This document shows positions 15,596 through 32,000 of a DNA stretch of 32,000 nucleotides, piece after piece. Location: assembly GCF_000020025.1 (NCBI RefSeq), contig NC_010628.1, positions 1,290,001 to 1,322,000 of the forward strand. The letters run 5' to 3'. How positions within the stretch are numbered: position 1 is the stretch's first letter; every line of letters starts with the position of its first letter. The position numbers were made by a program, and so were the translations under genes. The notes under the pieces were generated by a model. It worked only from the letters and a program-made list of their open reading frames with translations. It was not told the DNA's origin and ran no database searches. Source of the stretch: Nostoc punctiforme PCC 73102. GTDB lineage: Bacteria; Cyanobacteriota; Cyanobacteriia; Cyanobacteriales; Nostocaceae.

Positions 15596-16795
15596 CTACC
15601 ACTGCCCTGAATTATCTTCTTGTTGCAAACCTATCAACTGTCGCCGCTTCCAAGCATAATGAAGAATATTAATTCCAAGTTCCTGGGCTGTACGAATAGT
15701 CAATCTGGGTAAACTTAAATCTCTATCCAACCCCCACGCAGTTGCTAAATCTCCAATTGCTAGAATAATTCCGCCACCGATTAACAATTTAATTTGCTGT
15801 TGATTAACCATTGGCAAGGCAGCAAATAAAAAAGGTTTTGTCCTTAAAGGATGACTCCGTTGCAATTCTTCTAAAGGTCTTAAAGGACTTTCTAACTGTT
15901 GTGCTAATGCTTGAGTACTCTCAATTAAAGCATTAGCATTTGCTGGCGCATCAACCAGAAGCACACCACCTAAATTTAAGTAATTTTTAAGAGATTCAAA
16001 TTCGAGACTATTTAAAGAAATTGCCTGTCCACCTGTCAAATAAAGTAGGTCATAATCTTGAATATTTTCACTTAAAGAAACCTGCCCTGGTTCATCAGCC
16101 CCTCGTAAACTGGGATATAGGGGTTCTACTGCTTGTAACAAATACGAAAGGCTGAAAAAATTACGCGCACATTCCGGATCGCTATGAGTTGCTTGCGCCA
16201 TACACACAAGTGCTTGAGGACGCATTTGTGCTTGACGGCGATAACGTAAATCAATATTGTTATATCCAGGAAAGAAGGCATCCGCCGGTTGGGTAATTTC
16301 AGTATGTCCTGGTTGCAGAAGTATTTGACATATTTCTATTTCTGAACTGGCTGGTATAGAGTTTCTTTGGTCAATTCGATAGGTTTCTTGAACAACATCT
16401 CTTTGCTGTCCACGCCGCAATTCATCAGGGTCTACATAGCTAACTACTAAGTAGATCATGAGTGGTTCAGAACTTACTACTTCTATATCAATGGGAAAGT
16501 CATAAGAAGTCGGTACAACAATTAGATTACCTGCTAAATCAATTGCAATACCAGGTTGAATTTGCACCCAACGCCCATCTCGATATCTAGCTTCTACTTG
16601 ACTTGGGGCTGTCACATCTCGAACGCCTAAACCACAGACAATTCCTGGTTGGTTTAAACTTTGATATTGAGCATTTTGCCGATTTCGATGATAATCATGG
16701 GCTGTGCGCCAGCGTTCTGCATTTATTAGTAACCCGTCTGCGGCTTGCAGGCGTTCCAAAGATTTGATTGGTGGGGGTGGGAAAGGATGGGACAT
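15596..16795 (-). CDS. Terminal gene of the tail-like operon: unknown N-terminal region + DUF4159-like C-terminal domain
   Basis: 399-aa ORF with ATG at 16795, co-directional with and 73 nt downstream of the gpI-like gene. The C-terminal stretch DYDLLYLTGGQAISLNSLEFESLKNYLNLGGVLLVDAP...SHPL...PFLF matches my recollection of the DUF4159 signature. The N-terminal half has no recognised family. Confidence 0.5.
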   Translation of the reverse strand: MSHPFPPPPIKSLERLQAADGLLINAERWRTAHDYHRNRQNAQYQSLNQPGIVCGLGVRDVTAPSQVEARYRDGRWVQIQPGIAIDLAGNLIVVPTSYDFPIDIEVVSSEPLMIYLVVSYVDPDELRRGQQRDVVQETYRIDQRNSIPASSEIEICQILLQPGHTEITQPADAFFPGYNNIDLRYRRQAQMRPQALVCMAQATHSDPECARNFFSLSYLLQAVEPLYPSLRGADEPGQVSLSENIQDYDLLYLTGGQAISLNSLEFESLKNYLNLGGVLLVDAPANANALIESTQALAQQLESPLRPLEELQRSHPLRTKPFLFAALPMVNQQQIKLLIGGGIILAIGDLATAWGLDRDLSLPRLTIRTAQELGINILHYAWKRRQLIGLQQEDNSGQW

Positions 16796-16800
16796 AATAA

Positions 16801-16819
16801 TTTTAGATTTTAGATTTTG
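16801..16819. repeat. Heptamer repeat TTTTAGA
   Basis: ttttaga ttttaga ttttg; reverse complement of the 13269-13289 unit. Confidence 0.55.
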
Positions 16820-16868
16820 TCTATTTTAGAAATTCTAAACAATATTACCTATTGGTGTATTAAATTAT

Positions 16869-17897
16869 TTAATTAGTGGGATTTTCAATAGATAATTCGT
16901 ATGTGCAGAAAGCAGGCTTTTCTTGTTCTATTATTCTTTGAATGAGTTGCTCGTTAATAATGCCACTAGAAATATTTGAACGCAAACGTACTATAAAATG
17001 ATATGGTTGCCCACCTGCTAAAACGGCATTTCCTAATTGGACATCTCCTATGATGAAACTTGGGCCAAAAGGTTCTGTAATACTGATATGTTTATCCGCT
17101 TCATTAGGTAAATCTTCGTCTAGCGGTAAACCAGTATAAAGATGTAAATAGAGACGCAATCCTTTACGAGTTCCGCGCCAGCGATAAAGTTCTACAGCCC
17201 GACGAATTAAACGCCGTTGTTGCTGGAGATCCCAAACTGAATCTACTTGCCAAGCAACCCAATGAGCCATAAAAGGTAGTAATGCTTGTGGCGCTGTCAA
17301 AGGATCGAGGTTTGCCCACATGACATTGTAACTATCAACTATTGGTTGAAAAGCTTGCTCAAATATCTTCATGAAGCGACCAATAAAGTCTACTTCTCGA
17401 TACAAAATTGGCAAGAACTCCATGTAGGCAGTGTAGGGACGAATATATAAATCGAAATACTCGCTTCTTTCGATTTGTTCGTTCTCTGTGCCTGGGTCTA
17501 TATGTAAAGTAACTAGACTACGAAAATTGAGAGTTAATTTGTTTTTTGTTCCAGGAGAAATTGCTTCTTGGTCTTCAAAAAATGTGTCGGGAATTGAGAA
17601 GTAGAGAACAGCATCCATTTGTCCACGAGGCGGTATTTCACTACCCTCTGTGCCAATTTGACACCACTGGGATGGAAAGTTTCCCTCAACGCTTAAGCTT
17701 ACCCGCAAAGGATGTTGTTCTAAGTTTTGTACTTGCACAATCATCTCGCTGGGATGCCCAGGATGCAAGAGTAAAGTACGTCCAGCCACATCCATATCCG
17801 CGTTTGCAAATCCTAAGCCCGCCACAGGTAAAGCTTCGGGTATTTGCATTGGCGTTAATTGAATACTTACAGCTGGACTAGAGCGACTTTGAACCAT
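16869..17897 (-). CDS. Baseplate wedge protein, P2 gpI / Afp12-like
   Basis: The track ORF starts at TTG 17939 inside a heptamer array; the first ATG is at 17897 (MVQSRSS). The C-terminal two thirds carry the gpI-like pattern FLPILYRE...FIGRFMKIFE...LDPLTAP...LPFMAHWV...RRAVELYRWRGTRKGL. Confidence 0.75.
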   Translation of the reverse strand: MVQSRSSPAVSIQLTPMQIPEALPVAGLGFANADMDVAGRTLLLHPGHPSEMIVQVQNLEQHPLRVSLSVEGNFPSQWCQIGTEGSEIPPRGQMDAVLYFSIPDTFFEDQEAISPGTKNKLTLNFRSLVTLHIDPGTENEQIERSEYFDLYIRPYTAYMEFLPILYREVDFIGRFMKIFEQAFQPIVDSYNVMWANLDPLTAPQALLPFMAHWVAWQVDSVWDLQQQRRLIRRAVELYRWRGTRKGLRLYLHLYTGLPLDEDLPNEADKHISITEPFGPSFIIGDVQLGNAVLAGGQPYHFIVRLRSNISSGIINEQLIQRIIEQEKPAFCTYELSIENPTN

Positions 17898-17903
17898 AGG
17901 ATT

Positions 17904-17994
17904 TGGGAATGGGGAATGGGGAATGGGAGAAATAACCAATAACCAATGACCAATGACAAATGACGAATGACAAATTACGAATTACGAATTATTT
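17904..17994. repeat. 13-unit heptamer (STRR-like) array held in one 7-nt register
   Basis: TGGGAAT GGGGAAT GGGGAAT GGGAGAA ATAACCA ATAACCA ATGACCA ATGACAA ATGACGA ATGACAA ATTACGA ATTACGA ATTATTT. Fills the spacer between the gpJ-like and gpI-like genes and supplies the gpJ-like stop codon. Confidence 0.85.
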
Positions 17995-20173
17995 GAATGT
18001 CGTGATTTGAACGTAGATTGGTATCAGCCCAAGAACATATTAAACCTTCCGAGCCTGGGTCAATTAATTGTTCGGGTGATGGTTGTCGTCGCCAATTTTC
18101 TCCTTGCTTGCGGATGGGAAACAACAGGACGGGGCCTAAATGACGCACGCCTGGGGTTTGTTGCAATAATGCGACAATATCTGATGTATAAACGGGTCGA
18201 CCAAATGGCCAACCTTTGCCGTCCATTCCTCCAGTTAATGGATTTAAATATTTATACAGTGATACCCTTAAATTCCGGCGAATTTCTTCTCTGGCAAAAG
18301 GATTATCATAAGCAGGTTCTAAAGCAATTTCTGTCTGTACAGAAACACCTACGTAATTCGGTTCTTGTAATTCTATTTGTACCCCTAGTAACCGTCTTTC
18401 ATCTAAGTAACTCATAATTTGCTCTTGCAGGGCATTACTAAGAGCAAAATTTTCTGGTGTCATGCCATTACCTTGCGCGATCGCATCTGTATTTGCATAA
18501 GGTACTACCAGTAAACTAACTATACCAGCTTGTCTACGAGAATTTGCTGCTAAACATCGGACGCGCGCGATCGCACCTGCACCCGCCTGTTGAGTCAAAA
18601 CTTCAAAATCTTCCGCAGTGACGGCGCGATCGCGCGTGCGGAGGATGCGGGGAGCCTTGATCACAGCCTGTTCCAGAGACTCGGCATCCGCACCATTGAT
18701 TGCTGGTACACGATTGACCACACTAGCAATGTATGGATACGCAGATTTCAAAAACTGAATTGCCCCAGTTTGCACATTGCCTTCCCTACCGCCACCTGTA
18801 CGATAAGCAACCATTTTAATCTCTGCACCACGGGGAGGAATTGCCCCATATTGGTGTTCCGACTGGTTATTTTCTAGAACTTGTACAGATGTGTTATCTA
18901 GCGATGGTTCTTGAATTCGCGATCGCATCTGGGTATGCTGTTTAAGTTGGCTAGGTTCCCGAATCAGCGGCCCAAACTGGATTGTCCCAGCGATCGAATC
19001 GATGGTGTAATGAAAGTTATGTGGCCCAGAATCAGCAAAATCTCTCACCTCAATCCACTTTTGAGGCAAACCACCACTGGGAGTAACTAAAATATACTCA
19101 TTTTCTCGGCGTTCTAAAATTGGTACTGTTTGTAACTGGAAACTCTGACCGGGCGTACCATCACTAATTCCCAATCGCTCATCTAAAATCAGCGTACTGT
19201 GACTAGCCCTAACAGTACCGCCAATTGACCGCGCTGCTAAACCAATAATTCTTGGTGGACGATTGTAACCAGTTTCATTGGCTTCTGTAGAAACAAAGCT
19301 ACAGCGCAACCAACGACCTCGATAAGAGGTAAAATTCGCCACAGGCCAAATTTGAGGTAAATGTAAACGTACCTCTGCACCTTGAGATGGGTTTCCACCC
19401 TGTTGGGCCATTTCATAAAAACTGAACCCACGAGTTTTATCATCTGACTCTTGCAATAAAACTGCTTGCCAATTTTCCCCATCCCAGGCTTCCCACTTGC
19501 GGGGTGGTTGATTAGGGTTAATACCAGCAGGTGTAGCCGCAGCTCCTTGGAAAATAATTTCTAAAACATTAGCATCTAAAGGAGCGTCAGAATTAATTGC
19601 TAAATAAAAGCAGTTACCAGGCTGGGGTTCCTCTTCAAATATCGGTTGTTCATTACCTGTCCAGAAACCGTTAGATTGACGAGTCCATGAAGTTGTAACT
19701 CTTTCGCGCAGAGATTGGGGAATATCTTCGGTAGTTTGGGCAGTTAAGAAGTGTTGGATGCGGGGATTGCCGATAATTAGAGGATAATCTGTGCTGAAGG
19801 TAATAGCTTCTGTAGTTTCAGTGCGAATAGTTGAGGCTTCTAATCCTGCGGGAATAGTGTAGGCTTCGGGTAATGCAGCGCTTAAATAAAAAGTTAATTC
19901 CGTGCGGGCTGGGGCGGGAGGCTGGAGACGAATACCCAGTAATTCTAGGAAAGCGACATAATTTTTGCGAGGTACTTGGTTAAATCTGAGCAACATTTGG
20001 TCAGTCAACCAAGCAAATAACTCAATTAGCGTAATTCCTGGGTCGCTGAGGTTGTGGTCAGTCCATTCGGGACAGTAGCGGGGAATACGCATAATACATT
20101 CTTCCACCAAATCATCGAAGGCGCGATCGTCTAAGTTGGAAGAAGGTAATTTCGGTAAAAAATCAAAGTTCAT
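17975..20173 (-). CDS. Baseplate protein, gpJ / T4 gp6 / Afp11-like
   Basis: 732-aa ORF with ATG at 20173. N-terminal pattern FDDLVEECIMRIPRYCPEWTDHNLSDPGITLIELFAW is typical of baseplate J-like proteins, as are the size and the position after gp25. Confidence 0.85.
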   Translation of the reverse strand: MNFDFLPKLPSSNLDDRAFDDLVEECIMRIPRYCPEWTDHNLSDPGITLIELFAWLTDQMLLRFNQVPRKNYVAFLELLGIRLQPPAPARTELTFYLSAALPEAYTIPAGLEASTIRTETTEAITFSTDYPLIIGNPRIQHFLTAQTTEDIPQSLRERVTTSWTRQSNGFWTGNEQPIFEEEPQPGNCFYLAINSDAPLDANVLEIIFQGAAATPAGINPNQPPRKWEAWDGENWQAVLLQESDDKTRGFSFYEMAQQGGNPSQGAEVRLHLPQIWPVANFTSYRGRWLRCSFVSTEANETGYNRPPRIIGLAARSIGGTVRASHSTLILDERLGISDGTPGQSFQLQTVPILERRENEYILVTPSGGLPQKWIEVRDFADSGPHNFHYTIDSIAGTIQFGPLIREPSQLKQHTQMRSRIQEPSLDNTSVQVLENNQSEHQYGAIPPRGAEIKMVAYRTGGGREGNVQTGAIQFLKSAYPYIASVVNRVPAINGADAESLEQAVIKAPRILRTRDRAVTAEDFEVLTQQAGAGAIARVRCLAANSRRQAGIVSLLVVPYANTDAIAQGNGMTPENFALSNALQEQIMSYLDERRLLGVQIELQEPNYVGVSVQTEIALEPAYDNPFAREEIRRNLRVSLYKYLNPLTGGMDGKGWPFGRPVYTSDIVALLQQTPGVRHLGPVLLFPIRKQGENWRRQPSPEQLIDPGSEGLICSWADTNLRSNHDIQIIRNS

Positions 20174-20234
20174 ACCAATTTAAAAAAGATTGTGACAGAT
20201 ACAAGCCTAGAAACCCAGAGAAAATTCAGCTTTC

Positions 20235-20269
20235 TTAATTTTTAATTTTCAATTTTTAATTTTTAATTC
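20235..20269. repeat. Heptamer repeat TTAATTT x5
   Basis: ttaattt ttaattt tcaattt ttaattt ttaattc, between the gp25-like and gpJ-like genes. Confidence 0.7.
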
Positions 20270-20272
20270 GTA

Positions 20273-20695
20273 TCACGATTCCTCCCCAGCTGAAACCAAA
20301 TAATAAGGATAAACAAAACTATAAATATCGGGGCCGTCTTTGAGTCGATAATTGATAATGATGTCCACTCTGCCACGCACAGGGTCAGGATCGGTGACAA
20401 CTTCATCGATAGTAATGCGTGGTTCCCAAACTTCTAAAGCTTCCAAGACATAAAGACGGATTCGCAGTAGGGTATCGCTATTTAAAGGTGCAAACGCCAG
20501 TTCCGACAAGCGCGAACCAAAGGTAGGTCGATAAACCCGCTCACCTACTCCCGTGCGAAGGATAATCCAAATAGATTCCTTAACTTTTTGATCTTCACGG
20601 CTAAGTTGTATCCCACCTTGCACACTTAAATGCAGTGGATAAGCCCAACCTGTTCCCAAATAGGCTCGTTCACGACCGTAAACCATATCTGGCAC
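20273..20695 (-). CDS. Baseplate wedge protein, GPW/gp25 (Afp9-like)
   Basis: 140-aa ORF with GTG at 20695 (alternative ATG at 20686). GTGWAYPL...ESIWIILRTGVGERVYRPTFGSRL...LEALEVWEPRI is the gp25-like signature. Confidence 0.9.
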   Translation of the reverse strand: MPDMVYGRERAYLGTGWAYPLHLSVQGGIQLSREDQKVKESIWIILRTGVGERVYRPTFGSRLSELAFAPLNSDTLLRIRLYVLEALEVWEPRITIDEVVTDPDPVRGRVDIIINYRLKDGPDIYSFVYPYYLVSAGEES

Positions 20696-20712
20696 TTAGA
20701 CAGTTGTACATG

Positions 20713-20730
20713 GATATCTTCAAAGATATC
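20713..20730. promoter_or_regulatory. Perfect palindrome just upstream of the gp25-like gene
   Basis: gatatctt-ca-aagatatc, 18 nt upstream of the GTG at 20695 on the minus strand. Confidence 0.35.
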
Positions 20731-20867
20731 GGCACAGAGGGTTTAAGCCTATTCGCCAAAGGTCGAGGATGAAGAAGCGGGGGGCAGGGGAGCAGAGGGG
20801 CAGGAGGCTTTTCCGATTTTTGCACAGATGGGGTAATCATAAGTGATTAACCGGACTTGATATGAGA

Positions 20868-20930
20868 TGGATGAACGGAGTTCTGAGGTGGATGAACGGA
20901 GTTCTGAGGTGGATGAACGGAGTTCTGATA
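20868..20930. repeat. Three tandem copies of a 21-bp unit
   Basis: tggatgaacggagttctgagg x2 are identical; the third copy ends ...ctgata. Lies 44 nt upstream of the plus-strand YdhR-like gene. Confidence 0.9.
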
Positions 20931-20973
20931 TTATGTCCGCATAATTACAGAAAAATTCAAGATAGGAGCAAAA

Positions 20974-21300
20974 ATGCCAGTGAGTAAAGTATTTCTATAC
21001 GCCGAGTATCAAGTGTCTATTCCTTTTAGTCAGATTGATTGGAAATCAGCTAATGTAGAAATGAAAAAGTTTCCCGGATTGAAATCCAAAACTTGGTTAA
21101 GTGCTTTGAACACCAACACTGTTGGTGGTTTTTATGAATTTGATTCTGTAGAGAATGCACAAAATTATATTGATGGCATTTTGATTCCATTCGCTAAACA
21201 AGTCAATGGAAATCTCACTGTAAAGCTTTTCGATGGTGATATAACCAAAGAAGCTAGCACAGGTATGAGTTCTCCTTTCTATCCGGCAGAATCTAAATGA
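20974..21300 (+). CDS. YdhR-like small alpha/beta-barrel (putative monooxygenase-family) protein, opposite strand to the tail operon
   Basis: 108-aa ORF with ATG at 20974 preceded by AGGAG. PGLKSKTWLSALNTNTVGGFYEFDSVENAQNYID and TVKLFDGD align by eye with E. coli YdhR (PGFLWKVW...AGGIYLF...ALAYLE, AKVFDVN). Confidence 0.55.
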   Translation: MPVSKVFLYAEYQVSIPFSQIDWKSANVEMKKFPGLKSKTWLSALNTNTVGGFYEFDSVENAQNYIDGILIPFAKQVNGNLTVKLFDGDITKEASTGMSSPFYPAESK

Positions 21301-21366
21301 TTGTCCATCCCACACGCCAATTTCAAAAAGCCAAACGAGCCAAGGATGGTGGTATCCTTCATCTGG

Positions 21367-21420
21367 GATAAGAGCTTTTATGCGCTGACCTGCGAGGAGA
21401 TTGCATAAACCGCTCTTATC
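21367..21420. other. Extended hairpin between convergent genes
   Basis: gataagagc (21367-21375) / gctcttatc (21412-21420) form a perfect 9-bp stem, with an inner ttatgc/gcataa pairing. No U-tract on either strand. Confidence 0.4.
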
Positions 21421-21524
21421 GCTATACGGTTCAATCTAAGGATGCGATCGATCGAGCGGATATGATATGAGACTGATGAGTAAAGTTGCAACTCTACCCT
21501 CCCCAATTTCCTCTACTTCTCCAA

Positions 21525-22022
21525 TCAGCCGCCAATCAAAACGGTAAAATCACCTTTGATAATTTTATTCGGTGGCCCTAATGCTTCTAAAACAGTGTCG
21601 CCCATGCGAGAGGCAGGTAGATTGTTAATCAGCACTGTCTGACTACCGTCAATCACAACCCCAGGGCCGTGAGGAGGGAGGGGTAAAGGTGTGGCGCAAT
21701 TATGAATATCAGCTCCTGCTGCTGCTGCTGCGATCGCACTACCCATAGTAGCTGCTGATGTTGCCTTTGTAGTTTGTTCGGTGGCTAAAGCAGCAGGTGC
21801 GCCTGGTGTACCTGCTGCCGCTAGGGTAGCAGCCTCAGCCACTTGGATAGCCGTATCTGAAATTTGTTTGGCGGATTGCAAAGCTGGTACTGCTGCTGCA
21901 AGCACGCCCCGCCACGCAGGTAAAGACCCAATCAACACATTGGGACTACCCGGCCCCCCTGTTAAGACTGGGGGTAATGGATGCGCCACATTATCAGTAA
22001 TTCTTGCTGCTGGTTTACCCAT
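21525..22022 (-). CDS. PAAR-domain spike-tip protein with Ala-rich central insertion (Afp10-like)
   Basis: ATG at 22022 preceded by AGGAGG at a 5-nt spacing (the track adds a GTG codon). GKPAARITDN motif, then ...HNCATPLPLPPHGPGVVIDGSQTVLINNLPASRMGD. An Ala-rich stretch of about 70 aa lies in between. Confidence 0.85.
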   Translation of the reverse strand: MGKPAARITDNVAHPLPPVLTGGPGSPNVLIGSLPAWRGVLAAAVPALQSAKQISDTAIQVAEAATLAAAGTPGAPAALATEQTTKATSAATMGSAIAAAAAGADIHNCATPLPLPPHGPGVVIDGSQTVLINNLPASRMGDTVLEALGPPNKIIKGDFTVLIGG

Positions 22023-22041
22023 CACAACCTCCTATTGTGTT

Positions 22042-22127
22042 AATTACGAATTACGTTAGCGTAGCGGTAGCGAGTCCGCGTTCGCTTTTAGCGTCTCGTA
22101 GAGAGCGTCATTACGAATTACGAATTA
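22042..22127. repeat. AATTACG heptamer repeats flanking a ~54-nt dispersed element
   Basis: aattacgaattacg (22042-22055), then ttagcgtagcggtagcgagtccgcgttcgcttttagcgtctcgtagagagcgtc, then attacgaattacgaatta (22110-22127). The core is shared with 13648-13691. Confidence 0.65.
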
Positions 22128-23858
22128 ATTAAGGCGAATCATCGCACCTTTAACTGTAATCACTCCGTTGGCTGTAATGTCTATATTGCCAGCCGCATCT
22201 AATGACATATTACCTGTTGATTTCACTGAAACAGATTTAGCCATGTCGTCCATTTTGATTTTATGACCGCCTTTGGTTTCAATCTCTATGCAGCTTTGAC
22301 TATCATTAAGATATATTTTATGACCGTCTTTAGTTTCTACGCGAATACCTGTTTTACTAGTTCCTTTATCCTCTTCGACAAACTGTAGAACATGACCTAC
22401 ACGAGTTTTAATGGTGCGTAATCTTACACCGCTTGCAACTGAATCACTTACCCTTTCCGGTGGTGCATCCTTGCCGTTCCATACCCCACCAATGACGTAG
22501 GGACGGTGGATATCGCCATGCTCAAAACCTACCAAAACTTCATCGTTTACCTCTGGTAAACAGTCGAAACCTCTGTTATTCCCTGCTCCCACAGCTACAA
22601 CTCTCGCCCAGTCACTTGTATGGTCTTCTGTAAGAGTGGGAAACTTGACTTTCACTCTGCCCATTTTCTCTGGGTCTTTATTATCAGTCACAATTCCGAC
22701 TAATAAAGTCTCAGATGGCTGTAGACGTTTTTCTGGGGATAGAGTTGTGAATAAGTTACCAGAACGGAGTCCCCGCACGCTGAAATCAGTTTCATAAACG
22801 CGCTGATTAAAGAAATGGCGGGTTTCTGTAACATAATACTTACCACTATAGCGATCGCCCATACCCTCAAGACTAATAACCCGTCCAGGACGAATCTCAG
22901 GATTCCCTTCTGCTTTGGCATCTGCGTAAACAAATTCTCCTCCTAGTTCATCACACAAAGCCTGAGCCATCGTATCTGCTTGTTTTTTGCTGGCAACAGG
23001 TTTATCTACAACAATCATTTTAGGAGACTTAAGATTAGAAAATGCATTACTCGTACTACTTCCTAGCTTATTACCTGTCTCAGTTGTTTGCTTCTCTTTG
23101 TTAGCTGTTCCACTAATCAATTTTTTCTGGGTATAGTCCCAGGCTCGTACTTCTACAGAACTTATCTGTTCAGCACTAGTAACACGAGTACTAAATTTAT
23201 TAATATCAACTAGCCATTTTAATGATAAAGCTCCCTGAGTTTTTGGTTTGCAAAAATTGAGTTTTTCTTCGGTAATAAATAACTCAAAACCAATGCGAGC
23301 AGCCCTTTCTCGCAAAAATTCCATATTAGTTTGATTTTCTTGAAAGACATACTTATGAACTTCACCAGTTTGCTCTATATTGCCAGGTTTTATACCTACT
23401 TCTTTAATTATTTTATTGACTATACCGCTATCAGTTTCATTTAGAAAAGAACGATTATAACGACCTCTATGCAGACGATGAGAAATATCATAACCGCGAA
23501 CAATTATATCAGCTTCAGATTTTTCATTAAAGTGAACTTCCATCGCTGTAATTTCGCCTTCAATAATGAATTCCCCTACCTCTTCTTGAAAATTATTATC
23601 TAGAGTAGTACTTGAAGTAAAACCTAACTTCACTTTTTTACCAATCTTAAACAACTGATCGTGTCGCCAAGCCTTATTTTCTGCTCGATCAGATGTGGGA
23701 ATATAGCTATTATGGATTACTAGCGTAAACATTGCTGGTAAATGAAGGCTTTCTTCTATTGTGATTTGCAACAAATCCTTCATTAATTCAGGCGAAGCAG
23801 GTTGTCCATCTACCTGTATTTTAGGTTCGCTTAAATAAAGGCTTTTTTTAGCAGGCAT
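22125..23858 (-). CDS. VgrG-like spike/hub protein (gpD-like N-domain + gp5 OB-fold + C-terminal beta-helix; Afp8-like)
   Basis: 577-aa ORF with ATG at 23858. VGIVTDNKDPEKMGRVKVKFP...DWARVV...LPEVNDEVLVGFEHGDIHRPYVIGGVWNG is the gp5/VgrG OB signature. The C-terminus has repetitive beta-strand units (ETKDGHKIYL / ETKGGHKIKM). Confidence 0.9.
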   Translation of the reverse strand: MPAKKSLYLSEPKIQVDGQPASPELMKDLLQITIEESLHLPAMFTLVIHNSYIPTSDRAENKAWRHDQLFKIGKKVKLGFTSSTTLDNNFQEEVGEFIIEGEITAMEVHFNEKSEADIIVRGYDISHRLHRGRYNRSFLNETDSGIVNKIIKEVGIKPGNIEQTGEVHKYVFQENQTNMEFLRERAARIGFELFITEEKLNFCKPKTQGALSLKWLVDINKFSTRVTSAEQISSVEVRAWDYTQKKLISGTANKEKQTTETGNKLGSSTSNAFSNLKSPKMIVVDKPVASKKQADTMAQALCDELGGEFVYADAKAEGNPEIRPGRVISLEGMGDRYSGKYYVTETRHFFNQRVYETDFSVRGLRSGNLFTTLSPEKRLQPSETLLVGIVTDNKDPEKMGRVKVKFPTLTEDHTSDWARVVAVGAGNNRGFDCLPEVNDEVLVGFEHGDIHRPYVIGGVWNGKDAPPERVSDSVASGVRLRTIKTRVGHVLQFVEEDKGTSKTGIRVETKDGHKIYLNDSQSCIEIETKGGHKIKMDDMAKSVSVKSTGNMSLDAAGNIDITANGVITVKGAMIRLN

Positions 23859-23938
23859 AACTATTATTTGATAATTTATAAAATGTTCAGAGCAGCCTTG
23901 AATGAAAAAGTAAATACTAATTTCTCACTTTATTTGTT

Positions 23939-24496
23939 TTACTTACTCAGTTTTTGACCCTTTTTATCTGTTGCACGAGCGTTGCCTTTAGAATCAGATT
24001 TACGTCCTCCAGGCAGGTTATTCTTATCTACTTCTTGCAAGGCTATATCTACCAGTGCCCTGACTGGTGTACCATCACTCAAAAACATATTTAAAGTGTA
24101 GGTTAAACTCGTGATTACACAATAAAAATACTCATCTCCCCAGGTAAATATATAAACAGGTGGTCGTTTGTCAGTTGCTTTAGTGATAGTTTCTACACCT
24201 TTCTTAATGTTATCTATGTACTTTTTTATCACCGACTCTTTCGTTTCATAAGTATCATAAAGTAACTGTTTAAGTGTAAATTTGTAAGGTTCAACGCCAG
24301 AAAAGTTTACTTTCGGAAGTAGAGTAGTTCCTCTATTGCCATCCTTACTTTCCCACTTAACAGTCCGAGCGAAACTAATATCTGTAGGATTAAACATTAA
24401 TTCAATATCTGGCGCTTCATTGTTATAAGCTACAAGCTTGGCTTTCTCAAGTTGGGGTTTAAGCTTTTGAATAACAATAATTGCTGGACTTGCCAT
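23939..24496 (-). CDS. CIS tube-initiator/baseplate-hub protein (Afp7/Pvc7-like N-domain, no LysM)
   Basis: 185-aa ORF with ATG at 24496 after AGGAGA. LEKAKLVAY...IELMFNPTDISFARTVKWES fits the 'LEKA.I ... F.FNP ... W' pattern I associate with Afp7-type tube-fold proteins. Sits between the tape-measure-like and spike genes. Confidence 0.6.
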   Translation of the reverse strand: MASPAIIVIQKLKPQLEKAKLVAYNNEAPDIELMFNPTDISFARTVKWESKDGNRGTTLLPKVNFSGVEPYKFTLKQLLYDTYETKESVIKKYIDNIKKGVETITKATDKRPPVYIFTWGDEYFYCVITSLTYTLNMFLSDGTPVRALVDIALQEVDKNNLPGGRKSDSKGNARATDKKGQKLSK

Positions 24497-24534
24497 TTGA
24501 ATATTTCTCCTAAAATTAATTATTTAATGAAAAT

Positions 24535-27500
24535 TTACCAAGGTAATCGACCTGAGTAACCACCATGACGCTCTCGTTCAATTTCTATCCGTTGTCGTAA
24601 TCTGTGATAAATTTCACGAGCTAGAGCTTCCAAATCAGCTGTATCATCTTTTTCATCTCCTGGAGAAGATGAGGATGCACTCTCTATGGTTTCAGTTATC
24701 GGTTGTATTTCTCTAGATATGTCGGGTGGAGTGACTTCTCCACCATTAGCAAAGCCTCTAGGTGAAGGAAGGTGTTTAGCAAAAACTTGTGGTGATTCGG
24801 AAACATGAGAAAATTCATAATTTTGACTGTTTGATTCCTCATCATTAAAATTAAAGCTAGAGAATTCATCATTATTTCCATTTAGTAAATCTTCCACACT
24901 TGACCATTGAGAAGGTGTATCTGACCATTGGGAAGGTGTGTGAGTGCTGGGATTTGCTTTTCGGAAAATCAGGGGAGGCGATGAGTATTGAGGTGAAGAT
25001 TCACCGACATCTATTGTTTCATTTTGAAGAGTATGAAGCTGGGGAGAATTGAGGATAGAAAGTTTCTGTTTGTTAATATTCAACCCCAAGGAAGAAGGAA
25101 TTAAAGAATTTGATATCTCAGGTGAATCAGTCTCAGCGCTTTTTAGCTGTAATGCAGTGTCTGGAAAAGAATCGACTTTAGTCGGAGTCTCTGGAGAAAT
25201 TGTTGCTTCCGGTTCTATGGGATTGGGTGTTTGTAAACTTGGAAGAATAATATCTTGCGGTGTTCCACCCGTGTTGATGTGATGTAGTAGGGGTAGATTT
25301 TTCTGTGCATCCCTGGTATTAATCACAAACTCCCCAGGCGTAAGCATTGCAGGTACTGTATCGGAGGGTGCTATTTGCTCGCGATTTTCAACACGTGAGT
25401 CTGTAACATGACCACCAGTAGCATAACCTTTAGGCGCGGGCAAATTTTCTGCGATCGCATTTTGTTCAACTTTAGGTGCTGTGCTTACCTCATCTTGTAG
25501 AGAAGTTGGGTTGTCTAGAATATCTGGATTATCCCAGGTATAAGCAAAGGTTGATATTTCAGGATTTTCTGATTCTACTGCTTGTTCATTATCAATAATT
25601 TCCCTAAAAATACTTGTTTTCTCAACAATTTCAGGCGATGTGGCGCTAACTACCAATGCTTCATCAATTTCAGGTGATGTGGCGGTAACTGTTGGTGTTT
25701 CAGTAATCTCAGGCGAATTGGTGCTAACTACCAATGCTTCATCAATTTCAGGCGATGTGGTGCTAACTACCAATGCTTCATCAATTTCAGGTGATGTGGC
25801 GGTAACTGTTGGTGTTTCAGTAATCTCAGGCGAATTGGTGCTAACTACCAATGCTTCATCAATTTCAGGTGATGTGGCGCTAATTGTTGGTGTTTCAGTA
25901 ATCTTAGGCGAATTGGTGCTAACTACCAATGCTTCATCAATTTCAGGTGATGTGGCGGTAACTGTTGGTGTTTCAGTAATCTCAGGCGAATTGGTGCTAA
26001 CTACCAATGCTTCATCAATTTCAGGGGAAATGGCGGTAACTGTTGGTGTTTCAGCAATTTCAGGCGAATTGGTGCTAACTACCAATGCTTCATCAATTTC
26101 AGGTGATGTGGCGCTAATTGTTGGTGTTTCAGTAATCTCAGGTGAATTGGTGCTAACTACCAATGCTTCATCAATTTCAGGTGATGTGGCGCTAACTGTT
26201 GGTGTTTCAGCAATTTCAGGTGATGTGGCGCTAATTGTTGGTGCTTCAGTAATCTCAGGTGCTGCTAAGATGGGTTGACTTTCTGTAAACTCGCTACTAA
26301 GATTTTGAACATTGCTATCACGTTGTAGTGAAGTCACATTTCCTGAGACATCTGAGACATTAAGCACCATCGCAGACTGTGATTCTGAAGTTACTAATTG
26401 TTCATCGCTATCAGGGTTGCTGAATAAACTAGGTGTGTGTTCAATAGCTGCTGAGGTAGGTGTTAACTGAACAGGCGTAATATCTGGAAACTCACTCGTA
26501 ACACTGGAATCAATTTCCTGACTTTTCACAGTATCTGTAAAACCTTTTTCCTGAAAGGACAGAGGCTTTAAATTCTCCCTATTATCTGGTAATAAAGGGG
26601 GGTGAGGGGTTAGATTTTGCGTTGCTTTTTTTACATTGTGTGAAAAGTCAGGATCAATTTCTTGTTGTACTGTAATAGGATTTTTTGCAACTGAAGACTC
26701 AGTATTAGGTGAAGTAAAATGCGTCTCTACGGTATTTTCATCATTCTCCAAAGCATGGAGTAAAGTAGGTGAATCATCAACCTCAGATGAAGTAGGTGCT
26801 GAAGATAAAGTTAAATAATTATCAGAGATAGCATTATTTGTAACAAAATTATTTGTGTTTTTTTCTGAATCAGAGACAGCATTATCTGTGACAAAATTAT
26901 TTTTGCTTTTTTCTGATATTAAGTCTGCTTCAATAGCTGTAATTTCCTCAAGTTTAGTATTAATATTTGGTGATTCTTCTTCCTGCAATAGAGAGTTTAA
27001 GGTTGGTAAAATCTCTTTTGCTTGGATTAAATTTCCTTTGATTAAATTTGTTCGACTTACGCTGCTTTTATTGTCAACTATAGAAGGGACTTGAACTGTT
27101 TGAATGTCTTGTTGTGGTGGCGTTTGGCTAACTGGTATACCTGAAAGGTTAAGTGATTCTGAGACTTCAGGGATTAGTTCTTCTTCACTATTTGTAAAGT
27201 TGCTATCCCCTATAAATATTTTTTCTGTATTTTTCTTAGAAGGAACTTCTATAGATGAAGTGTTGACTAATTCACTGGTTTCATCTTCTAATTCAATATT
27301 TTCTTCCGATGTTAAAGTATTTTCTGTTAAAGACAAATCTTTACTAGAGAAACTAGATATTAGCTCAGAAGTTTCTGACAGCTCATCGCTAGCATCGGTA
27401 GCAAAATTATCGAATAAAGTTGATTTGTCTTGAAAACTAGGTGAAGTATCTACGGTTGGGGTACTGACAGAACTACGATCCTTTGTAGTAGTGTCTAACA

Positions 27501-28137
27501 CAATATTTAGTTGTAAATCTTGTGTTTCGAAATTAGCCTCAATAGGCATAGATTCATCTGATATTAATAAGTTATCTTTATTAAGATTAATATTAGTTTT
27601 ATCAACAATTGGCTCAAAGTTTTTAGGACTAGATGATTTGATAGCTTTTTTAGTTCTAGATTTTGACTTTGGTTCTTTTTCTAGTGGTTTCTTAGATTTA
27701 TTTGTTTTTTTTGGCTTAGATTTAGTTTTTATATTTACTTCTTGGGATGTGCCATTACTCGTATTTGTCTCGTTGGGAGTTGGCATTATCTTTGGAATAC
27801 TATTTTTTACTGATTCATTGCTATTTTCTAGTTCAGCTATTGAATCAGAAGCATCAAACTCAATCAACGGAAATTCGCCAAATTCACTATTTATATCCTG
27901 AGTATCCCAACTATCCCAACCTATTAATGGTTCAATCGATGGTTCATACTGACGAGACAAGAAAAATTTAGAGGATTTGACTAATGGTGGTTTAGTTTGG
28001 ATTGTACTAATAAAATTACTTCGTGAATGCAAAGAATGAGATTCTTTTCTCAATATTATTCCCTGAGAATTATATAAAGATGATATAACCCCAAGGGGAT
28101 GAATATTGTTTCCTAGTGAAGATTGAATAATTTGCAT
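24535..28137 (-). CDS. Tape-measure-like protein, 1200 aa, mostly low-complexity
   Basis: ATG at 28137. Located between the tube and tube-initiator genes, the usual tape-measure position in CIS loci. Two copies of a G(Y/F)A(T/N)GG.VT motif; the first is followed by VPAMLTPGEFVIN (lambda-H-type tape-measure C-terminal motif). The sequence is S/T/E/N/P-rich. Confidence 0.6.
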   Translation of the reverse strand: MQIIQSSLGNNIHPLGVISSLYNSQGIILRKESHSLHSRSNFISTIQTKPPLVKSSKFFLSRQYEPSIEPLIGWDSWDTQDINSEFGEFPLIEFDASDSIAELENSNESVKNSIPKIMPTPNETNTSNGTSQEVNIKTKSKPKKTNKSKKPLEKEPKSKSRTKKAIKSSSPKNFEPIVDKTNINLNKDNLLISDESMPIEANFETQDLQLNIVLDTTTKDRSSVSTPTVDTSPSFQDKSTLFDNFATDASDELSETSELISSFSSKDLSLTENTLTSEENIELEDETSELVNTSSIEVPSKKNTEKIFIGDSNFTNSEEELIPEVSESLNLSGIPVSQTPPQQDIQTVQVPSIVDNKSSVSRTNLIKGNLIQAKEILPTLNSLLQEEESPNINTKLEEITAIEADLISEKSKNNFVTDNAVSDSEKNTNNFVTNNAISDNYLTLSSAPTSSEVDDSPTLLHALENDENTVETHFTSPNTESSVAKNPITVQQEIDPDFSHNVKKATQNLTPHPPLLPDNRENLKPLSFQEKGFTDTVKSQEIDSSVTSEFPDITPVQLTPTSAAIEHTPSLFSNPDSDEQLVTSESQSAMVLNVSDVSGNVTSLQRDSNVQNLSSEFTESQPILAAPEITEAPTISATSPEIAETPTVSATSPEIDEALVVSTNSPEITETPTISATSPEIDEALVVSTNSPEIAETPTVTAISPEIDEALVVSTNSPEITETPTVTATSPEIDEALVVSTNSPKITETPTISATSPEIDEALVVSTNSPEITETPTVTATSPEIDEALVVSTTSPEIDEALVVSTNSPEITETPTVTATSPEIDEALVVSATSPEIVEKTSIFREIIDNEQAVESENPEISTFAYTWDNPDILDNPTSLQDEVSTAPKVEQNAIAENLPAPKGYATGGHVTDSRVENREQIAPSDTVPAMLTPGEFVINTRDAQKNLPLLHHINTGGTPQDIILPSLQTPNPIEPEATISPETPTKVDSFPDTALQLKSAETDSPEISNSLIPSSLGLNINKQKLSILNSPQLHTLQNETIDVGESSPQYSSPPLIFRKANPSTHTPSQWSDTPSQWSSVEDLLNGNNDEFSSFNFNDEESNSQNYEFSHVSESPQVFAKHLPSPRGFANGGEVTPPDISREIQPITETIESASSSSPGDEKDDTADLEALAREIYHRLRQRIEIERERHGGYSGRLPW
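25627..26268 (-). repeat. In-frame 39-bp tandem array (~16-17 units; alternating 13-aa units SPEIDEALVVSTN / SPEITETPTV(T/S)AT)
   Basis: Near-identical 39/78-nt periodicity is visible on both strands. The plus-strand 212-aa ORF 25640-26278 is its antisense shadow. Confidence 0.9.
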
Positions 28138-28160
28138 AGTGATAGTTTAAGAGTAGCCAA

Positions 28161-28685
28161 TTAGCTAGAAACGAAATATCCTGATTTTTGATTTCGTTGT
28201 ACAGAAGAGCCTCCTCCTGTAGACCTTGCGACTTGTAAACCTTCATAAGCTAAAGTTAATTCTTCAATCGCAACTGCCTTCCCATCTGCTTGGAGTGCAG
28301 GAGTTTTCCAGGTTATAGGAATAGCACCAATCAAAGTCCAACTCATCATCGTTTCACCGGCTTGATTAAAAATCAGAATATTGACATTGCGTCGAGATGT
28401 TTTCTTTTTTTCATCAAAAACTGCATTCATCCAGTTCCAAAAACCTGGATGATCGGTAAATCCTCGTTTAAGAGTTATGTCTGCAAATTCTGTATGACCT
28501 AAATAAATTCTTTGCTGGTCGTTAACACCACCTTCCTGAAAAACATTTTTCTTAATTTGAACACTTAATCCTGAACATTCAGCGAAAGATGCAGCAATAG
28601 AACTGTCTATCTCTACGTAAAACCGATTAGTAGTGACATAATTTAATTCGTGAGTAATGTTGCCATTGTTAGCGCCTGTAGCCAT
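28161..28685 (-). CDS. Tail tube protein (T4 gp19 / Afp1-like)
   Basis: ATG at 28685 overlaps the upstream stop (TAATG); the track uses GTG at 28694. NRFYVEIDSSIAASFAECSGLSVQ...GHTEFADITLKRGF...FWNWMN is the conserved phage-tail-region/tube signature. Confidence 0.9.
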   Translation of the reverse strand: MATGANNGNITHELNYVTTNRFYVEIDSSIAASFAECSGLSVQIKKNVFQEGGVNDQQRIYLGHTEFADITLKRGFTDHPGFWNWMNAVFDEKKKTSRRNVNILIFNQAGETMMSWTLIGAIPITWKTPALQADGKAVAIEELTLAYEGLQVARSTGGGSSVQRNQKSGYFVSS

Positions 28686-28924
28686 TACAACCACCTTTGA
28701 GAATCATAACTACCTATTCTTTCGCGCTGCGATCGCAAATCTTCTAGCATAAGTTTATATACGTGTTCTGTAAGCTGGTTCATCAGCCGTGAATCGTTGA
28801 GATATTTACTTGCCGTTTTAGCCGCCTTAGTAGCATCAGATGCCGCCGAAACCCCGGCGTATCCAGCAGTACCGCCAACATCTCCATCGAACGTGAAAAA
28901 AGTTTGTTGCTGTTTTGAGTCCAT
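28685..28924 (-). CDS. First gene of the tail operon: 79-aa protein sharing a C-terminal motif with the tape-measure-like protein
   Basis: ATG at 28924 with GGGAGAG upstream. The C-terminus LTEHVYKLMLEDLRSQRERIGSY parallels LAREIYHRLRQRIEIERERHGGY at the tape-measure C-terminus. Translationally coupled to the tube gene. Confidence 0.5.
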   Translation of the reverse strand: MDSKQQQTFFTFDGDVGGTAGYAGVSAASDATKAAKTASKYLNDSRLMNQLTEHVYKLMLEDLRSQRERIGSYDSQRWL

Positions 28925-31395: not shown

Positions 31396-31410
31396 TCGTG
31401 GATCTTGTAG

Positions 31411-31877: not shown

Positions 31878-32000
31878 TGTACAATTACCTCTTGAATTGG
31901 GTCATCAATAATTTGTTTAATCTGATATCTCTCTACAGATATTTGGGCAAATTCCCGCTTGAAAAAAGCTTCATAAACACCTATAGGCACTGCCAAATAG
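31865..32000 (-). CDS. xisH: XisH-family protein, C-terminal fragment (runs off the window)
   Basis: Minus-strand reading gives ...LAVPIGVYEAFFKREFAQISVERYQIKQIIDDPIQEVIVQWIP*. The ending EVIVQW matches XisH C-termini, and the position is the usual one immediately upstream of xisI. Confidence 0.65.
   Translation of the reverse strand, partial: YLAVPIGVYEAFFKREFAQISVERYQIKQIIDDPIQEVIVQWIP

Follow-up and report, generated by a model that had tools for sequence, protein, structure and literature searches.

The closest solved relative of the locus described here is the cytoplasmic contractile injection system (CIS) of Streptomyces coelicolor, CIS-Sc (dbeCIS type IId; sco4242-sco4263; PDB 8BKY, 9GTP, 9GTS), and type IId loci have already been reported in filamentous cyanobacteria. 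Like the Nostoc system, CIS-Sc encodes its sheath in an operon of its own (sco4253 to sco4251), has a pair of tube homologues (cis1a and cis1b), and contains divergent promoter regions within its cluster. It likewise has a Pvc16_N terminator, an AAA+ ATPase, and an eCIS_core-domain protein tied to cargo, and it lacks a conventional tail fibre. The thylakoid-anchored system (tCIS) of Anabaena sp. PCC 7120 (all3313-all3327; PDB 7B5H/7B5I) comes from the same order, Nostocales; it has DUF4157 effector candidates alongside, its cluster lacks an Afp15-type ATPase, and the two share the generic parts Cis1/5/7/8/9/10/11/12. The Afp/PVC systems of Serratia and Photorhabdus contain the same parts, including a Pvc16_N cap and an AAA+ ATPase, and their baseplate half follows the same order (Afp5-like, tape-measure slot, Afp7, Afp8, PAAR, Afp9, Afp11, Afp12); however, they have three sheath genes, whereas one was found in the Nostoc-related loci, and the Nostoc genes are not contiguous and include no receptor-binding fibre.

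We analyzed a 32-kb stretch of the Nostoc punctiforme PCC 73102 genome (hereafter, the window). Positions 15596-28924 very probably represent the baseplate/spike/cargo operon of a fully contractile injection system with genes split over three places.

Gene content of the baseplate operon

Using Pfam and NCBIfam, we confirmed the content and coordinates of ten minus-strand genes within 15596-28924. Eight window proteins are exact matches to PCC 73102 entries in the range ACC79813 to ACC79829. Locus tags were assigned to window genes from accession order and strand pattern, by which the genes would be Npun_R1092 to R1102 plus the DUF4157 gene Npun_F1103; the count of 11 genes from R1092 to R1102 and the F/R pattern of the tags, with forward F1091 and F1103 at the flanks, fit the window exactly. 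Tags for individual window genes are given below on this basis. The first-pass annotation described ten co-directional genes, and although their content and coordinates stand, they do not form one unbroken run, because a plus-strand ydhR-like ORF (20974..21300; PF08803, 5e-7, above cut-off; Npun_F1096) sits in the 830-bp gap separating PAAR from gp25. Based on the accession count, exactly one gene fits between gp25 and PAAR, and the ydhR-like gene is missing at this position in a related locus (L008); it is not part of the CIS.

The operon begins with a gene encoding a conserved 79-aa protein (28685..28924; ACC79828, Npun_R1102), a gene that does not head the corresponding operon of CIS-Sc. 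The protein had no match in Pfam, NCBIfam, PHROG, or PDB, and its C-terminus weakly resembles that of the 1200-aa protein described below (hhalign E 4.8e-4, probability 32%). Its orthologues have 58-96% identity and are always encoded directly upstream of the gp19 gene.

The gp19 gene (28161..28694, minus strand; Npun_R1101) encodes an inner-tube paralogue (PF06841, 5.7e-40); translated from the annotated start, it gives a product of 174 aa, and its reading frame overlaps the stop codon of the preceding 79-aa gene. The protein scored 91 bits against CIS5_fam versus 46 bits against CIS1_fam, both below the curated NCBIfam cut-offs, and because the CIS5 adaptor family outscores CIS1, it may not be the main tube. 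Its PDB matches include Cis1 of AlgoCIS and Anabaena, Pvc5, and the six-chain S. coelicolor baseplate tube protein 9gtp_a. The same PDB search gave no match to the main tube chain 8bl4_v, which the two gp19 paralogues of the sheath operon do match. Judged by sequence, Npun_R1101 is probably a tube adaptor (Cis5/Cis1b-like); it was initially read as a gp19/Afp1-like tube, of which the family assignment holds and the main-tube role is in doubt.

In the tape-measure position, a gene at 24535..28137 (minus strand; Npun_R1100) encodes an acidic, repeat-rich protein of 1200 aa; the corresponding slot in Streptomyces is reported to be empty. Neither Pfam, NCBIfam, nor PDB searches returned a credible match, and PHROG gave a single weak tape-measure match (residues 923-961, E 0.0048). 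The protein contains 43% S+E+T+P, has no hydrophobic segment, and carries the motif P[KR]G[YF]A.GG.V twice, and within its gene, Tandem Repeats Finder identified a 78/117-bp tandem repeat array at 25622..26236 (period 78, 6.4 copies, 92% matches). Homologues range from 1031 to 1666 aa, with conservation confined to the C-terminal third. This candidate tape measure or lumen cargo is likely disordered and shows none of the features typical of tape measures.

The next three minus-strand genes encode a tube initiator and the spike. The Cis7/Afp7-like tube initiator (23939..24496; PF19266 CIS_tube, 2.7e-23; ACC79825, Npun_R1099) matched the tube initiator 8kea_P and LysM-domain proteins of 9gtp and 7aeb in the PDB. 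The VgrG-like spike (22125..23858; ACC79824, Npun_R1098) exceeded the cut-off for VgrG_rel (NF033848, 1.7e-117) and contains Phage_base_V (2.9e-28) and Phage_GPD domains based on Pfam. The PAAR spike tip (21525..22025; PF05488, 7.8e-14; Npun_R1097) has an Ala/Gly-rich insertion.

Beyond the ydhR-like ORF, the minus strand encodes the gp25/Cis9 sheath initiator (20273..20695; PF04965, 1.9e-20; Npun_R1095) and the Cis11/baseplate J wedge protein (17975..20173; TIGR02243, 7.5e-208; ACC79820, Npun_R1094), which aligned to S. coelicolor Cis11 (PDB 9gtp_1K) at 1.5e-126. The Cis12/P2 gpI-like wedge protein (16869..17939; PF09684, 7.5e-10; Npun_R1093) is a short form of 356 aa, with matches to TIGR02242 (1.5e-39), to part of CIS12_fam in NCBIfam, and to PDB 9gtp_E (1.8e-4). 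The last gene (15596..16795; ACC79818, Npun_R1092) encodes a 399-aa fibre-slot protein, in which a Cis13-like N-terminus (CIS13_fam, NF053767; residues 20-98, 4.4e-10, below the curated cut-off) is followed by a C-terminal DUF4159 domain (7.1e-17); we did not find a clear transmembrane helix in it. In Streptomyces, the slot downstream of the baseplate genes is instead occupied by the membrane protein CisA. A 75% identical 399-aa homologue closes the baseplate operon in a related locus (L085), where it adjoins the ATPase block.

The first-pass annotation raised membership in the Anabaena tCIS. That the locus is a copy or part of this system is very improbable. Like tCIS, the locus belongs to a Nostocales host, has DUF4157 genes nearby, and contains no ATPase within its cluster; the 399-aa protein also has its weak Cis13-like N-terminus. 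However, the sheath and Cis11 resemble those of Streptomyces far more closely. The orthologous sheath of Nostoc ATCC 53789 (P0322) aligned along its full length to S. coelicolor Cis2 (8BKY) at 9e-120, whereas its matches to Anabaena All3325 (2e-52) and, at much lower similarity, to Afp/PVC sheaths (1e-42 to 2e-48) were limited to the C-terminal domain, and the window Cis11 had no Anabaena match at E<0.01; by these two proteins, tCIS is another lineage. The Anabaena cluster is contiguous, with sheath gene all3325 adjoining tube gene all3324, whereas the Nostoc system is split. Nor were three further tCIS features seen in the Nostoc system, namely the Cis19 crown, the extension of Cis12 beyond 1100 aa, and a Cis13 with a transmembrane segment; at 356 aa, the window Cis12 lacks the 610-1100 extension. 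N. punctiforme is also absent from the feature table of the tCIS paper.

Sheath, cap, and ATPase genes outside the window

No scanned ORF of the 32-kb window contained a sheath, cap, or AAA+ domain. In agreement, TBLASTN of a relative's sheath-operon cap, sheath, small proteins, FHA, and kinase against every frame of the window returned no match, the sole signal being paralogy among gp19 proteins; the first-pass observation that these genes are missing from the 32 kb is thus upheld. Their absence is an effect of the window edge. In a published study of this strain (PMC12691664, mBio 2025), co-localised phage-like genes were described from Npun_F1091 to F1118 (1,303,703-1,340,837), of which two structural sets, F1091 to R1102 and F1111 to F1116, were co-expressed mid-dark, whereas F1103 to R1110 were not; Npun_F1112 was named there as the tail sheath gene and validated by RT-qPCR. 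Npun_F1112 is nine locus tags past the DUF4157 gene Npun_F1103. In orthologous loci, its two published qPCR primers fall within the sheath ORF (nt 181-274, 0-2 mismatches), and the window has no site for either. N. punctiforme has a sheath gene, and this gene is expressed.

Among 82 related cyanobacterial loci, the genes for cap and sheath share a conserved operon with a pair of tube paralogues and three small genes. Cap and sheath occurred in all 82, with the Pvc16_N cap gene always directly before the sheath gene; tube164 occurred in 80, and p115 and p127 each in 79. A kinase/regulator/PBP-like/FHA module was present in 66-68 of these loci. Sheath sequences from the 80 genomes retrieved share 88-99% identity, with a single conserved operon order. 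The 79-aa/gp19 and cap-sheath-tube-tube operons of ATCC 53789, Anabaena subtropica, and Nostoc P8256 are transcribed divergently, with 5.5-9.8 kb between them. The 80 loci that the genome scan returned do not include PCC 73102, and the content of Npun_F1106 to F1116 is based on published annotation, the primers, and synteny. On these grounds, we infer that the sheath/tube/cap operon (Npun_F1111 to F1116) lies roughly 8-12 kb past the right edge of the window, divergent from the baseplate operon.

These results bear on the alternative that the first-pass annotation had proposed alongside a split locus, namely a reduced, non-contractile tail-like device that has tube, spike, and baseplate and lacks a sheath. 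The lack of sheath, cap, and ATPase in any frame of the window is consistent with such a device; however, the operon includes gp25, a sheath initiator, the same strain expresses a co-regulated sheath gene nine tags away, and every related locus retrieved has cap and sheath, close to the baseplate half wherever both are in view. This reading is scarcely credible, whereas the split locus, with its contractile and assembly parts encoded elsewhere, is borne out.

The co-expression burst of tail-like genes at a single mid-dark time point was read in PMC12691664 as induction, which would make the locus an inducible temperate myovirus prophage with tail genes turned on in the dark. We consider this unlikely in the extreme. 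Capsid, portal, terminase, integrase, lysis, and replication genes were unseen in the window and in two syntenic loci (L009 and L022), whereas the eCIS hallmarks are present, namely Pvc16_N terminators, eCIS_core/DUF4157 genes, and a WHD-AAA+ ATPase. The protein listed in that study as "GpW head morphogenesis" appears to be the GPW_gp25 baseplate protein. In the window, the baseplate operon adjoins the housekeeping genes pheT and Tab2, and these neighbours, together with the conservation of the sheath, point to a long-resident cellular system.

Between the two operons lies a DUF4157/eCIS_core gene (29116..31395, plus strand; PF13699, 1.3e-32; ACC79829, Npun_F1103), divergent from the baseplate operon, with a product that contains an HExxH motif (HELTH in translation) and is a candidate effector or cargo adaptor. 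It is followed by XisI and the start of XisH (31542..32000, minus strand; XisI PF08869, 2.4e-44). A Logan contig from an N. punctiforme run (L091), on which XisH was called, is 100% identical to window positions 29778-32000 and extends through XisH into a second DUF4157 paralogue that begins just past the window edge; XisHI is an insertion between the two paralogues and is not part of the CIS. The gene content of this contig accounts for the eight tags F1103 to R1110. The gap holds effector paralogues and XisHI and, by synteny, would also hold a four-gene histidine kinase/GerE-type response regulator/PBP-like/FHA module, and this separation of the structural operons differs from CIS-Sc.

The AAA+ ATPase is present in PCC 73102 as ACC81871.1, approximately 2,040 protein accessions from the window operon; it falls within the 90% cluster of a protein (P0400) that is 69% identical to the ATPase adjoining the sheath operon in L085. 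Logan contigs from N. punctiforme runs show an intact Pvc16_N gene (424 aa) and AAA gene (662) in the same direction, with a divergent Ser/Thr kinase gene. Because three relatives carry this block immediately adjacent to the sheath operon, the distant module would serve the system in the window. In CIS-Sc, about 22 genes form a single region. The first-pass annotation took sheath, cap, and ATPase genes immediately past the edge as evidence against its reading, and the position of the sheath, tube, and cap operon largely corresponds to this; the ATPase lies far away.

FHA and Ser/Thr kinase genes adjoin the sheath operon and likewise the ATPase block, unlike in CIS-Sc; an FHA protein follows the sheath operon in most relatives, and a CHASE2 Ser/Thr kinase does so in many. 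This neighbourhood resembles the threonine-phosphorylation control of the type VI system (T6SS; TagH/Fha, PpkA, PppA), and the FHA proteins matched the TagH model at sub-threshold values (2.2e-13 and 8e-10). The resemblance is one of gene neighbourhood alone; there is neither a T6SS membrane-complex gene nor a TssB/C-type sheath.

Finally, dispersal over three places, the XisHI and ydhR-like interruptions, and the remote ATPase block could indicate a decaying, non-functional remnant of a formerly contiguous cluster. We regard this as most improbable. None of the ten baseplate ORFs is disrupted, and their conservation is high, with as many as 196 members in the 90% clusters. About 80 species share the gene order of the sheath operon, the two structural operons are expressed together, and N. 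punctiforme read assemblies contain intact ATPase and Pvc16_N genes.

Proposed assembly and mode of action

In the contractile, three-part system that we favour, the window operon would supply the 79-aa protein, the gp19 adaptor, the acidic tape-measure-slot protein, Cis7, VgrG, PAAR, gp25, the Cis11 and Cis12 wedges, and the Cis13-like/DUF4159 fibre-slot protein, with the divergent DUF4157 effector gene alongside. The second operon would contribute the Pvc16_N cap, the sheath, two more gp19 tube paralogues (three in all, one more than in CIS-Sc), and small conserved proteins, and the third part would add the second Pvc16_N protein and the AAA+ ATPase, with the kinase. One particle would be built from all three parts. 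Its baseplate may nucleate on VgrG, Cis7, and the gp19 adaptor; gp25 would then start polymerisation of the sheath encoded by the second operon, the caps would end it, and contraction would expel tube, spike, and cargo. By analogy with the Streptomyces type IId CIS, its closest solved relatives, and given that no receptor-binding fibre is present, the system would most likely be deployed from the cytoplasm in response to stress or dark-phase signals, and not be released as a particle.

Gene content of the baseplate operon and its flanks

It is very probable that the minus-strand operon running from 28924 down to 15596 encodes the baseplate, spike and cargo of a complete contractile injection system (CIS) whose genes are spread over three places. 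The system is neither sheath-less nor non-contractile.

We used an ORF listing together with Pfam and NCBIfam scans to define the gene content of the window. Eight of the encoded proteins are identical to PCC 73102 (ATCC 29133) entries in the series ACC79813 to ACC79829. In transcription order, the operon begins with a gene for a 79-aa protein without a family (28685-28924), followed by genes encoding a gp19-family protein (28161-28694; PF06841, 5.7e-40), a 1200-aa protein that occupies the tape-measure slot and has no credible family (24535-28137), and an Afp7-like tube initiator of the CIS_tube family (23939-24496; PF19266, 2.7e-23). An inner-tube type gp19 and a tube initiator are thus both present. 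All five baseplate components are also encoded, each with a significant Pfam or NCBIfam score: VgrG (22125-23858), PAAR (21525-22025), gp25 (20273-20695), baseplate J/Cis11 (17975-20173) and a 356-aa gpI/Cis12-like protein (16869-17939). The tenth and last gene encodes a 399-aa protein (15596-16795), in which a Cis13-like N-terminus, a sub-threshold NCBIfam match, is joined to a DUF4159 domain; the first-pass annotation had listed this protein by length alone. That annotation also described ten co-directional minus-strand genes with a gp19/Afp1-like tube. The ten genes are present as listed, but a plus-strand ydhR-like ORF (20974-21300) breaks the run between PAAR and gp25. The gp19 family assignment stands, but the CIS5 adaptor model outscores the CIS1 model, with both below their curated cut-offs.

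The ydhR-like ORF lies in an 830-bp gap (20696-21524), whereas the corresponding gap in Anabaena subtropica is only 110 bp; this insertion probably divides the baseplate operon into two transcription units. A 21-bp tandem repeat (3.1 copies, 20863-20928) sits ahead of the ORF. Two heptamer tandem repeats, AATGACC (6.4 copies, 17931-17975) and TTAATTT (4.9 copies, 20235-20268), fall exactly in the gpJ/gpI and gp25/gpJ intergenic gaps, respectively. A promoter and terminator scan of 15.2-32 kb returned fewer sites than shuffled sequence and was therefore uninformative on operon boundaries.

Divergent from the operon, a gene at 29116-31395 encodes a DUF4157 (eCIS_core) protein that carries an HExxH motif, and to the right of this gene are XisI and the start of XisH. 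The left flank of the cluster consists of a MazEF pair, Tab2, a YCII gene and pheT. The MazE/MazF toxin-antitoxin pair (14688-15264) adjoins the last cluster gene, and a VapB-like antitoxin ORF (10266-10466) lies upstream of pheT. No sheath, Pvc16_N or AAA+ domain was found among the scanned ORFs of the window, and TBLASTN alignment of a relative's cap, sheath, small proteins, FHA protein and kinase against the window returned nothing in any frame. The initial claim that sheath, cap and ATPase genes are absent from these 32 kb was therefore correct.

The sheath operon in relatives and in N. punctiforme

In A. subtropica, an operon encoding the 79-aa protein, gp19, the long protein, CIS_tube, VgrG, PAAR, gp25 and J matches that of the window, and an opposite-strand operon 5.5 kb away encodes a Pvc16_N (DUF4255) cap, a sheath, two further gp19 paralogues and small proteins. 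Nostoc sp. ATCC 53789 (locus L009) has the same layout, with the baseplate and cap-sheath operons oppositely oriented. Between its two operons lie a DUF4157 gene and four minus-strand genes encoding an FHA protein, a PBP-like protein, a GerE-type response regulator and a histidine kinase; after the sheath operon come an FHA protein and a CHASE2 Ser/Thr kinase. In Nostoc P8256 (locus L022), the order is 79-aa gene, DUF4157, XisI, XisH, signalling module, cap and sheath, which resembles the right end of the window.

A genome scan with the ATCC 53789 sheath as query identified 80 loci, with PCC 73102 not among them, and synteny was counted over these plus the A. subtropica and ATCC 53789 loci (n = 82). 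Cap and sheath occur in 82/82, with the Pvc16_N cap gene (279 aa) directly before the sheath gene. A 164-aa tube protein is found in 80 loci, 115-aa and 127-aa proteins in 79, and DUF6760 in 74. The upstream signalling module (histidine kinase, GerE-type regulator, PBP-like, FHA) is present in 66-68 of the 82 loci, and the 79-aa gene lies within 10 kb in 10 of them. The FHA protein after the sheath operon (L009:13902-15890) has a C-terminal domain like methylglyoxal synthase (TIGR00160, 4.5e-25, below cut-off); such a fusion is unusual beside a CIS, and the protein is conserved in 67 of the 82 loci.

For N. punctiforme itself, phage-like genes Npun_F1091 to F1118 were reported as co-localised at 1,303,703-1,340,837 (PMC12691664, mBio 2025). 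Structural genes F1091 to R1102 and F1111 to F1116, but not F1103 to R1110, were co-expressed at mid-dark, and the tail sheath gene Npun_F1112 was checked by RT-qPCR (PMC12691664). The strand letters and gene count of these tags agree exactly with the window genes, and on that basis we infer that F1091 is MazF, that R1092 to R1102 comprise eleven genes, starting with DUF4159 and ending with the 79-aa gene, among which F1096 is the ydhR-like ORF, and that F1103 is DUF4157. F1091, the inferred MazF, was grouped among the "structural" genes in that study (PMC12691664). In orthologous loci, both published Npun_F1112 primers match inside the sheath ORF (0-2 mismatches), and neither occurs in the window. 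Logan contig L091, assembled from a sequencing run of N. punctiforme, is 100% identical to window positions 29778-32000 and continues for another 1,014 bp into XisH and a further DUF4157 paralogue. The eight non-structural tags are thereby explained, as are the approximately 4 kb by which this region exceeds that of L022. Based on synteny and the published coordinates, we estimate that the sheath gene starts roughly 8-12 kb past the right edge of the window. Npun_F1111 would be the 279-aa Pvc16_N cap in PCC 73102.

The first-pass annotation had offered either a split locus or a reduced, non-contractile derivative. With Npun_F1112 annotated and expressed as a tail sheath, its primers mapping in orthologous sheath ORFs, and a sheath in every one of the related loci, we reject a non-contractile device. 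A decaying remnant is also rejected, as all ten ORFs are intact and the two structural operons are co-expressed.

The locus has also been interpreted as a dark-induced prophage (PMC12691664). We consider this unlikely because capsid or other head, portal, terminase, integrase and lysis genes are absent from the window and from syntenic loci L009 and L022, whereas eCIS hallmarks are present and operon order is kept across about 80 genomes. The housekeeping genes pheT and Tab2 also adjoin the cluster. The protein named "GpW head morphogenesis" in that study appears to be the GPW_gp25 baseplate protein.

The displaced ATPase block and kinship with Streptomyces

In Nostoc FACHB-152 (locus L085), a Leptolyngbyaceae genome (L081) and Anabaena azotica (L087), whose sheaths are 88-89% identical, a block encoding a Ser/Thr kinase, a 424-aa Pvc16_N protein and a 662-aa WHD-AAA+ ATPase lies immediately before the cap and sheath genes, on their upstream side. 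In L085, the block also adjoins a DUF4159 gene that shares 75% identity with the one in the window. In this second architecture (L085:1-9000, L081, L087), the kinase/Pvc16_N/AAA+ block replaces the histidine kinase, regulator, PBP-like and FHA module of most Nostoc loci.

In genomes of the N. punctiforme type, the ATPase block is elsewhere; in ATCC 53789 it is at 5.58 Mb amid housekeeping genes. Within PCC 73102, the protein ACC81871.1, annotated as "AAA ATPase, central domain protein," shares a 90% cluster with the ATPase P0400. This 662-aa WHD+AAA protein is orthologous, at 69% identity, to the ATPase beside the sheath operon in L085, L081 and L087. Assemblies of N. punctiforme sequencing reads show the kinase gene in one orientation and the genes for the 424-aa Pvc16_N protein, which was read directly, and the 662-aa AAA protein in the other. 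Counting along the accessions, about 2,040 proteins separate the block from the window, and it is outside the CIS region. The split-locus alternative proved right, with the sheath operon an estimated 8-12 kb past the edge and the ATPase and Pvc16_N pair far removed.

The ATCC 53789 sheath aligned over its full length with Streptomyces Cis2 (8BKY, 9e-120), whereas the Anabaena thylakoid-anchored CIS (tCIS) sheath matched only in the C-terminal domain (2e-52). Similarly, the window Cis11 aligned with the Cis11 of 9GTP at 1.5e-126, and the tCIS Cis11 gave no match to it. For both proteins, the next-best lineages scored far lower. Judged by these sequence similarities, the Streptomyces cytoplasmic CIS are the nearest systems with solved structures, and the N. 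punctiforme CIS is an uncharacterised member of that lineage, distinct from the Anabaena system. The occurrence of type IId loci in filamentous cyanobacteria has already been noted (PMC10020575). Features shared with Streptomyces type IId include a separate sheath operon containing two tube paralogues (as seen in the relatives' loci), divergent promoters in the locus, the lack of a fibre, a Pvc16_N terminator and an AAA+ ATPase. Unlike in Streptomyces, however, the N. punctiforme ATPase block is displaced, the signalling module is embedded between structural operons, and there is a third gp19 paralogue. In addition, the slot of the membrane protein CisA (SCO4242) is filled in N. punctiforme by the Cis13-like/DUF4159 protein, and the tape-measure slot holds the acidic, repeat-rich 1200-aa protein.

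The hallmarks of the Anabaena tCIS are a Cis12 extension at aa 610-1100, a transmembrane Cis13 and a Cis19 crown. We rejected membership in this group, as the N. punctiforme Cis12 homologue is 356 aa long and the 399-aa protein in the fibre slot has no clear transmembrane helix. None of the ten window proteins matched a crown-like family in Pfam or NCBIfam.

Putative cargo, assembly and control

The three gp19 paralogues were not cleanly told apart by NCBIfam CIS1/CIS5 models or PDB matches, and we do not name a main tube. Searches with the 79-aa protein against Pfam, NCBIfam and PHROGs, and with its profile against PDB sequences, returned nothing informative. The C-termini of the 79-aa (28685-28924) and 1200-aa (24538-24807) proteins share a motif (...L..RQR.E.ERER.G.Y...RLPW and ...DLRSQRER.G.Y.SQRWL, respectively). 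Because this likeness is so slight (BLASTP E 0.002; hhalign E 4.8e-4, probability 32%), we assign no function from it; the two proteins might dock at one site in the spike or tube lumen.

The 1200-aa protein has no PDB match even at E≤1, and its Pfam match to Cas_csx3 spans only 28 residues and was rejected as chance. It is acidic and repeat-rich (43% S+E+T+P) with no hydrophobic segment, and its orthologues range from 1031 to 1666 aa. A 78/117-bp tandem repeat (25622-26236) within the gene encodes units of 26 aa, SPEI(D/T)E.... A 1031-aa version in the Logan assembly of another N. punctiforme run could reflect real copy-number variation or short-read repeat collapse. Cargo proteins of Streptomyces that are tape-measure-related and paired with eCIS_core proteins are a possible analogy for the 1200-aa protein and the DUF4157 genes. 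The two DUF4157 paralogues (29116-31395 and, just past the window end, L091:1-528) are almost identical in their N-termini and in the DNA upstream (87-89% nucleotide identity), with the XisH/XisI pair between them; the first contains a 66-bp repeat (2.7 copies, 29480-29663).

Extrapolating from homologous structures, VgrG with PAAR, Cis7 and the gp19 adaptor would form the hub, and Cis11, Cis12 and gp25 the wedges. The gp25 protein would initiate the sheath around the tube, with sheath and tube supplied by the second operon, and Pvc16_N proteins would cap the distal end. Like its Streptomyces counterpart, the ATPase may have a role in maturation or in function; the Streptomyces protein is required for activity, whereas assembly proceeds without it.

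In the Streptomyces lineage, the particles are cytoplasmic, are not released and mediate cell death. Because a receptor-binding fibre is lacking and the kinship is with Streptomyces, we favour, by analogy, action in the cytoplasm, for which stress or signals of the dark phase would provide the trigger. Candidates for its regulators are the FHA, kinase and two-component genes; the sheath operon and the displaced Pvc16_N-ATPase block each have FHA and Ser/Thr kinase genes beside them. Within the window, the products of a minus-strand operon (3959-8124) are a TPR-repeat Ser/Thr kinase, a PP2C phosphatase, a VWA protein and a protein of 118 aa. The baseplate operon has its distal end 7.5 kb away. 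This kinase operon is perhaps unrelated, although FHA and kinase genes recur beside the other two parts of the system.

A fuller model, which is speculative and on balance improbable, is a cytoplasmic Streptomyces-like CIS whose assembly or firing is gated by phospho-signalling, with the acidic repeat protein as lumen cargo and not a ruler. The gating is suggested by the conserved kinase, regulator, PBP-like and FHA module between the operons, the flanking FHA and kinase genes, and the dark expression peak. If true, this would be T6SS-style threonine-phosphorylation control grafted onto an eCIS-type particle, by which a multicellular cyanobacterium would bring about regulated cell death or the release of cargo.

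What looked exceptional, a myovirus-type baseplate and tube with the sheath missing, vanishes once the neighbourhood is read, and further work should not treat the cluster as a non-contractile device. With the sheath operon about 10 kb off and the ATPase and terminator pair megabases off, pipelines that accept only contiguous clusters containing an ATPase could overlook loci of this kind or cut them short. N. punctiforme is a genetically tractable symbiotic model with an uncharacterised CIS, and reading the locus as an injection system alters the meaning of the dark expression burst (PMC12691664). The conserved signalling genes around each part suggest possible control of the system and provide a testable regulatory lead.
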